A DNA stretch of 64,000 nucleotides, taken from the sequence record NC_100331.1; one strand, given 5' to 3'. A program made the translations under genes and the position numbers. Under the pieces are notes generated by a model. That model was not told the origin of the DNA, did no database searches, and was given only the letters and a program-made list of their open reading frames with translations. Below, piece by piece: positions 46,238 to 46,687 of this stretch (position 1 is the stretch's first letter; every line of letters starts with the position of its first letter). The stretch is from Escherichia phage vB_EcoS_HASG4.

Positions 46238-46687
46238 TTAATTTATTAACTGTAAGCTTCTTTTAATTTCAGACCTTACCTGCATCAAAAGAACTCCTAA
46301 AGTATTATCCCCGATGCCCCGGCAAACACCCCAATATGTATCCCCCCAGGTATTTCCTTCAATCAAAGTTGCATTTTCTGTTGCTAACAGTTTGTCTCTC
46401 AAATCAGGGATTGCAAACTTTAACCGTAAAAGCTCTAGCATTACATCATCTTTTACCTTATCCCAGTCAGAGCGTAGAATTAATTTACGTCCTCTACGTT
46501 TAGCAACTCCTGCATTTAGGGAGCGTAGTACATGAGCTACATCATCTTTTTGGTCGGATTTCATAGCCTGAAAAGCATGTTCTACAGTATCAGCATGCCA
46601 TATTTCATTTAGATATTCGAAAGTAATTGGTGATAAATAAAAGTTAGATAAGAAACTATAAGCACCTTTAAATTCAGTAATCTTCAT
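46238..46687 (-). CDS. NADAR-family (YbiA-like) protein
   Basis: 149 aa; FLSNFY and W..T.EH.FQA.K motifs resembling E. coli YbiA. Confidence 0.7.
   Translation of the reverse strand: MKITEFKGAYSFLSNFYLSPITFEYLNEIWHADTVEHAFQAMKSDQKDDVAHVLRSLNAGVAKRRGRKLILRSDWDKVKDDVMLELLRLKFAIPDLRDKLLATENATLIEGNTWGDTYWGVCRGIGDNTLGVLLMQVRSEIKRSLQLIN

Follow-up and report, generated by a model that had tools for sequence, protein, structure and literature searches.

A NADAR protein of the T5-like phage EASG3, one residue away from AdfN^Bas32, as a predicted eraser of DarT1 guanine ADP-ribosylation

What does a T5-like phage do with a 149-residue protein that its own record describes as a 'hypothetical protein, conserved domain DUF1768'? 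The question is raised by a gene in the DNA analyzed here, a stretch of 64,000 nucleotides to which we refer as the window, in which a 149-aa ATG-to-stop open reading frame (ORF) fills positions 46238..46687 of the minus strand exactly. The 2 kb around this gene match Escherichia phage vB_EcoS_EASG3 at 100% identity. The source of this T5-like phage (Demerecviridae, Markadamsvirinae, Tequintavirus) is duck dung; the gene is EASG3_00114 of its record, MK373799.1, and window coordinates are obtained by adding 39 to those of the record. As to its function, 148 of the 149 residues are identical to those of the bas32_0066 product, with I70T as the sole change, and 146 of 149 to those of bas33_0070. 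Judged by sequence, the EASG3 protein is an orthologue of the bas32_0066 protein, which has been named AdfN^Bas32, and a member of the NADAR superfamily. In other words, the function is already in the literature via a one-residue variant described in 2025, and it is only the annotation of the EASG3 record that is outdated. That said, the idea of a counter-defence role, which an earlier note had reached from the DNA letters, was publishable when conceived and is now no longer new; the present analysis adds nothing conceptually new to it, given that the function of the variant was published in 2025.

The family assignment, as read from the sequence, lies far beyond chance resemblance. Namely, the protein matches the Pfam NADAR profile (PF08719, DUF1768) with E=2.3e-21 and 77.2 bits, compared with a cut-off of 35.1, over profile positions 9-163 of 163. 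In the PHROGs collection it matches phrog_1017 (function unknown) at 1.5e-44, and its matches in the PDB are E. coli YbiA (2b3w, 7e-15) and the Phytophthora nicotianae protein PnNADAR (8bau, 1e-6). An AlphaFold2 model, calculated on an alignment of the query with 55 homologues of 47-60% identity (56 sequences in all), reached a pLDDT of 97.5 and a pTM of 0.91. The modeled chain has the YbiA-like alpha-helical core flanked by small beta sheets, and this core is predicted to begin at residue 2 of 149, with no N-terminal extension in front of it. When the model was compared with the PDB using Foldseek, only two matches were significant, YbiA 2b3w (TM 0.83, 36% identity) and the ADP-ribose-bound PnNADAR 8bau (TM 0.78). 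Profile, fold and active-site residues thus agree on the NADAR-family identity that the earlier note had given. Of the two motifs on which it had based this identity, FLSNFY is found as written at residues 12-17, while the second, WHADTVEHAFQAMK at residues 30-43 (W30, T34, E36, H37, F39, Q40, A41, K43), agrees in all but the spacing of its start, which had been given as W..T, one residue short of the actual W...T. Searches with PADLOC and NCBIfam defence models returned only weak, sub-threshold matches to NADAR domains (PDC-M42C at 1e-6; DS32_2 at 43.6 bits, with a cut-off of 240), which reflect the common domain and not membership in a defence system.

At the level of individual residues, E36, K43, K63, E110, D116 and W119 are the same throughout the 56 aligned sequences. 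To map residues, fragments from the PDB and T4 gp30.3 were added to the alignment. In PnNADAR, E43, K50, K75, R79, W89, R93, E125, D130 and W133 either contact ADP-ribose or are required for guanine-ADP-ribose hydrolysis (Schuller et al., PMC11543638), and their equivalents in the EASG3 protein are E36, K43, K63, R67, W75, K79 (an Arg in PnNADAR), E110, D116 and W119. The same work equates PnNADAR E43, K50 and K75 with E88, K95 and K115 of E. coli C7 DarG1, and regards PnNADAR E125 as structurally equivalent to D171 of C7 DarG1 (PMC11543638). This last position is diagnostic: the YbiA family sensu de Souza & Aravind has Glu there, the BC4488/DarG1 subfamily Asp and T4-like phage NADARs His (PMC11543638); E110 of the EASG3 protein aligns with PnNADAR E125 and with the YbiA glutamate, as in the YbiA family in this sense. 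Furthermore, E36 and K43 align with the residues of the same numbers in T4 AdfN, where replacement by alanine abolishes counter-defence (preprint PMC11257639).

Does the resemblance to YbiA mean that the phage protein shares the housekeeping role of YbiA? One could argue that it is a metabolic N-glycosidase which, like E. coli YbiA, destroys reactive intermediates of the riboflavin pathway, and that it is placed among nucleotide-metabolism genes for metabolic reasons. Indeed, YbiA is the closest solved structure, with the identity and TM-score given above, the YbiA-type glutamate is present as E110, the best NCBIfam match is TIGR02464, 'riboflavin biosynthesis intermediates N-glycosidase' (E=6.7e-18), and many database records name relatives 'ribA/ribD-fused uncharacterized protein' or 'GTP cyclohydrolase II'. 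However, the score against this equivalog model is 65.4 bits, below the curated cut-off of 73.7, and we accordingly rejected membership in the YbiA riboflavin N-glycosidase equivalog; the label 'YbiA-like' of the earlier note stands as regards the diagnostic glutamate and the closest structure, but does not extend to that equivalog. What is more, there is no riboflavin gene near the NADAR locus, the gene is dispensable in that T5 lives without it, and the sequenced relatives that we inspected sit in phage-like contigs, such as the 168-kb contig that carries a 57%-identical relative (P0012). Finally, the protein that differs by one residue gives a clear phenotype against DarTG1 (PMC11825919), and DarT1 toxicity is rescued by the Bas32 protein and not by YbiA. 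All in all, we give the riboflavin reading almost no credence and return to counter-defence.

The experiments that bear on counter-defence most directly come from Johannesman, Awasthi, Carlson and LeRoux (Nat Commun 2025, PMC11825919; preprint PMC11257639), who gave the bas32_0066 product its name, AdfN^Bas32, and expressed it ectopically, as in all published tests of this protein. AdfN^Bas32 neutralises the toxicity of DarT1 in uninfected E. coli and, on hosts carrying DarTG1, brings T5, RB69 and Bas25 back to full titre (PMC11825919); T5 is otherwise blocked by DarTG1 (PMC11825919; PMC11257639). On hosts carrying DarTG2, whose toxin modifies thymidine, AdfN^Bas32 was without effect for T5 (PMC11825919). 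With a single residue of difference, these experiments support the earlier proposal that a phage copy of a NADAR gene counters defence by reversing DNA ADP-ribosylation by DarT-type toxins. The differing residue, number 70, falls in a variable column of the NADAR family alignment, and the codon differences among EASG3, Bas32 and Bas33, 3-13 synonymous versus 1-3 non-synonymous, suggest that the gene is under purifying selection. As a side observation, the NADARs of Bas32 and Bas33 are called identical in the published paper (PMC11825919), but their GenBank records differ by A9T, E104K and 12 synonymous codons (locus excerpts 2139-2588 and 2116-2565, respectively). The AdfN literature reports no native-phage knockout for Bas32, Bas33 or EASG3, and the HIDEN-SEQ preprint covers the T4 genes adfN and adfM only, with nothing on T5-like phages.

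How would such a protein neutralise DarT1? In those parts of the published text that were accessible (PMC11825919), we found neither an in vitro assay of an AdfN^Bas32-type protein nor a catalytic mutant of it, and the latter is one reason to consider that the protein might be an antitoxin mimic, neutralising DarT1 by binding the toxin and not by hydrolysing ADP-ribose from DNA. Another is K63, the equivalent of C7 DarG1 K115, a residue without which catalysis still proceeds but toxin rescue fails, and whose role may be to recognize DNA and/or to interact with DarT1 (PMC11543638). Still, the whole set of ADP-ribose-binding and catalytic residues is invariant among relatives of 47-60% identity, which would be unexpected for a pure binder, and AdfN^Bas60 and AdfN^T4, both only distantly related, lead to the same result, in the case of AdfN^T4 with a requirement for E36 and K43. 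Moreover, every NADAR that has been assayed in vitro hydrolyses guanine-ADP-ribose. We therefore consider pure toxin binding highly improbable, and hydrolysis of the ADP-ribose modification the better reading. That said, E. coli YbiA and T4 gp30.3 share this activity in vitro and yet do not relieve uninfected cells of DarT1 toxicity, so that in the NADAR family what an enzyme does in vitro is separable from its function in vivo. In this respect, it is worth noting that the position of K63 is a Lys in C7 DarG1 (K115), an Ala in YbiA and a Gln in T4 AdfN; on the aligned sequences, the lysine correlates with DarT1 rescue in uninfected cells, where YbiA and T4 AdfN fail, and it may be the enabling feature.

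A different possibility, also raised by the authors of the AdfN paper, is that DarTG1 is only one of several targets, and that the protein also, or even mainly, reverses other ADP-ribosylation of nucleic acids, including cytidine-ADP-ribose, guanosine-ADP-ribose in RNA, or modifications made by undiscovered defences or by toxins of competitors. Namely, members of the NADAR/YbiA family remove cytidine-ADP-ribose from DNA and RNA, which DarG1s and the T4 NADAR do not, and the EASG3 protein has a glutamate of the YbiA/NADAR type where DarG1 has Asp and T4-like NADARs have His. On the other side, no known defence system ADP-ribosylates cytidine, and the thymidine-modifying DarTG2 is not countered by AdfN^Bas32 (PMC11825919). 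We regard a role for which DarTG1 is just one target as plausible but rather unlikely. A related and tentative idea, which we deem possible but would not bet on, is that T5-like AdfN proteins could be broader erasers of ADP-ribosylation than DarG1 or T4 AdfN, in that families with the glutamate seen here as E110 remove cytidine-ADP-ribose as well as guanine-ADP-ribose from DNA and RNA, and that they could counter ADP-ribosylating defences or toxins beyond DarTG1, with K63 perhaps allowing them to neutralise DarT1 in uninfected cells.

Taken together, the reading that we prefer, and in which we have high confidence, is that the EASG3 protein is an orphan-antitoxin-like NADAR of the AdfN^Bas32 type, encoded by an accessory gene that is the second cistron of an early orf94-adfN unit, and that it reverses the guanine ADP-ribosylation of phage DNA by DarT1 through E36/E110 hydrolysis. 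In this scheme, DarT1 of a DarTG1-carrying host would ADP-ribosylate guanines in the phage DNA and thereby block its replication. The NADAR protein would then bind the ADP-ribose moiety through K43, R67, W75, K79, D116 and W119, and would use E36 and E110 to hydrolyse the N-glycosidic bond to guanine, whereupon the DNA could again be replicated and phage replication would proceed. For the clade of Bas32-type proteins as a whole, we infer the guanine-ADP-ribose hydrolase mechanism from homology and from the specificity for DarTG1 as opposed to DarTG2. Similarly, expression of adfN early in infection by EASG3 appears probable, as does a need for the gene in the native phage.

The surroundings of the gene are summarized in Table 1. 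The earlier note had placed the gene in a block of nucleotide metabolism, and the locus does lie next to such a block, with RNase H, ThyA, DHFR, NrdB, NrdA, PhoH and NrdD upstream, on the same strand or nearby.

Table 1. Features of the adfN locus in window coordinates
Feature	Position	Strand	Basis
adfN-type NADAR gene, 149 aa, EASG3_00114; predicted guanine-ADP-ribose DNA glycohydrolase and anti-DarTG1 factor	46238..46687	-	ORF, Pfam NADAR, AF2, Foldseek, near-identity to AdfN^Bas32, mapped catalytic residues
orf94, 94-aa ORF (T5.090 homologue, phrog_4593, unknown function), first gene of the orf94-NADAR unit	46684..46968	-	ORF call, PHROGs, ATGA overlap
T5-type early promoter cassette, AAAAAT..TTGCTT-17 nt-TATAAT, upstream of orf94	46996..47034	-	sequence; core conserved in EASG3, T5 and Bas32
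Counterpart of T5 P-H207, promoter cassette for the DUF7022 gene that follows; begins inside the NADAR stop codon, at the right-hand junction of the insertion	46201..46239	-	sequence and comparison with T5
Segment of ~500 bp in EASG3 and Bas32, absent from T5, where ~55 bp stand instead	46240..46738		pairwise blocks, three-way alignment, T5 annotation

In one point the earlier note has to be corrected, namely in its claim that the gene has its own promoter cassette. The NADAR start codon (ATG, 46687-46685) overlaps the stop codon (TGA, 46686-46684) of the upstream 94-aa ORF in an ATGA at 46687-46684, there is no cassette between the two ORFs, and the adjoining cassette at 46239-46201, which lies downstream of the NADAR stop, serves the next gene. 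We therefore rejected a separate promoter: orf94 and the NADAR gene form a two-gene unit, with the NADAR gene in second place. The ATGA overlap itself suggests that orf94 and the NADAR gene are co-transcribed and translationally coupled. The sole candidate for a promoter of this unit is the cassette upstream of orf94, identified from its sequence. The core of the stretch from the rnh stop codon to the start of orf94 is identical in EASG3, T5 and Bas32, and the T5 record annotates a promoter at the homologous place (46337-46411). A generic sigma-70 scan did not list the cassette, its TTGCTT agreeing with TTGACA at 3 of 6 positions, below the 4-of-6 rule of the scan. An early transcript of the two genes would be driven from this cassette (47034-46996), beside genes of replication and nucleotide metabolism. 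As for the downstream gene (45647-46162, minus strand), it encodes a very basic DUF7022 protein of 171 aa, a homologue of T5.089 (Pfam E=3.8e-77), and its P-H207-type promoter abuts the NADAR stop codon.

The locus was also compared with those of other T5-like phages. In T5 (NC_005859) the order is rnh, T5.090, promoter P-H207 and T5.089, with no NADAR gene, and when the whole T5 genome was searched in six frames with hmmsearch, using a profile built from the 56-sequence NADAR subfamily alone, no hidden one was detected (best E=1.5, versus 5e-64 in the window). The segment that T5 lacks carries the whole NADAR gene and a new 3' end of orf94. Namely, the indel starts inside the 3' end of orf94, as a result of which its last ~15 residues differ from those of T5.090 and the protein has a new C-terminus. 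Identity with T5 at the flanks of the segment is 326/354 on the left and 131/132 on the right, counted from 46239 downward, and on the right it is regained precisely at the A-tract of the promoter cassette that follows. The BASEL phages IrisVonRoten (bas32_) and HildyBeyeler (bas33_) have the NADAR gene at the same place and in the same gene order. At the DNA level, 442 phage records match the 2-kb region, and 94 carry the protein at 95% identity or higher (tblastn). By this count, adfN is an accessory gene, present in about one in five of the T5-like records matching the region and lacking in T5. Another NADAR, 60% identical, is seen in Salmonella phage UTK0009 (vB_SenS_UTK0009, NC_111487.1, Epseptimavirus; 2489-2938 of the locus excerpt), between rnh and the T5.090 homologue. 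The UTK0009 gene thus lies before, and the EASG3/Bas32 gene after, the T5.090 homologue, which implies that this neighbourhood has received NADAR genes more than once; in other words, the gene orders suggest independent NADAR insertions into the same ~1-kb neighbourhood.

Several other features of the window were noticed along the way. A predicted 71-aa ORF at 45372-45587 (minus strand; phrog_2380, unknown function) stands between annotated terminators; EASG3 and Bas32 have it, T5 and Bas33 lack it at this place, and it adds a further small accessory cassette to the early region in which the NADAR gene lies. Between the genes for RNase H and thymidylate synthase are two small ORFs with no Pfam match (47521-47790 and 47790-48086, both on the minus strand). 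At this place (47521-48086), T5 and Bas32 have no annotated gene and Bas33 has one, which amounts to more accessory-gene mosaicism beside the NADAR locus. The 233-aa protein encoded at 44363-45064 (minus strand) is a 'putative metallopeptidase' in the BASEL records and an 'exonuclease' in T5; in Pfam it matches the Rv2179c-like 3'-5' exoribonuclease family (E=3.4e-8) and in PHROGs an exonuclease, and on these matches the metallopeptidase label looks wrong. At 41159-41232 of MK373799.1 (about 41198-41271 of the window) the record annotates a 'tRNA-Ser(act)' with an unusual anticodon, where T5 annotates a stable RNA, 'rnaX'. Farther away, about 10.6 kb from the NADAR gene, lies a gene for a Sir2-family protein (57288-58109, plus strand; Pfam SIR2 E=1.8e-23), the homologue of T5.102, followed by one for a protein with a HAD_SAK_2 domain (58269-58775, plus strand), which T5 mislabels as 'Sir2'. 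An NAD-dependent phage enzyme of the Sir2 family and an ADP-ribose eraser in one genome may merit a look.

From a practical standpoint, the analysis corrects misleading names under which the NADAR gene goes in databases, such as 'swarming motility protein', 'GTP cyclohydrolase II' and 'hypothetical protein'. In addition, the presence of adfN helps to predict the growth of T5-like phages on E. coli or Salmonella that carry DarTG1, and such prediction is useful when phages are chosen for therapy or biocontrol.

How does the EASG3 protein compare with the NADAR systems already known? With E. coli YbiA (PDB 2B3W), its closest solved structure, it shares a single domain of similar size and the diagnostic glutamate. 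However, ybiA belongs to the chromosome, where it serves as a housekeeping gene within an operon under LexA control, and is not a phage accessory gene, and YbiA has an Ala at the position of K63 and does not rescue from DarT1. With the DarG1 antitoxins, such as those of E. coli C7 and Geobacter lovleyi, it shares the fold, the lysine (K115, equivalent to K63) and, as predicted for EASG3, the removal of ADP-ribose from guanine. On the other hand, orf94 and the DUF7022 gene flank it, with no DarT1 or other ADP-ribosyltransferase gene adjacent, it is without the N-terminal extension of DarG1 (beta1-beta2-alpha1), and it has the glutamate E110 in place of the catalytic Asp of the BC4488 subfamily (D171 of C7 DarG1). 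For these three reasons, we rejected its classification as a DarG1.

The relationship with AdfN^T4 (T4 gp30.3) is a distant one. Both are single-domain NADARs countering DarTG1, and their catalytic Glu and Lys align, the agreement in numbering (E36/K43) being coincidental. That said, AdfN^T4 has no BLASTP similarity to the EASG3 protein (E=1.1), a profile comparison is the sole link (hhalign 92%, over 94 columns only), and the AdfN^T4-like cluster has a His at the position of E110, with T4 itself having a Gln at that of K63. Given the BLASTP result, the reliance on profiles and the retained Glu, we rejected membership in the T4 AdfN cluster. What is more, AdfN^T4 cannot neutralise DarT1 outside of T-even infection, while Bas32-type proteins can (PMC11825919; PMC11257639), and according to the authors the two were acquired independently (PMC11825919). 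Finally, AdfN^Bas32 itself (bas32_0066, QXV80247.1, of Escherichia phage IrisVonRoten/Bas32) agrees with the EASG3 locus in the gene order rnh - orf94 - NADAR - DUF7022, in the ATGA overlap, in the flanking promoter cassettes and in the genus Tequintavirus. The two differ by I70T and in their annotation, in that the EASG3 copy is recorded merely as a 'hypothetical protein, DUF1768', to which near-identity would now assign the function of AdfN^Bas32.
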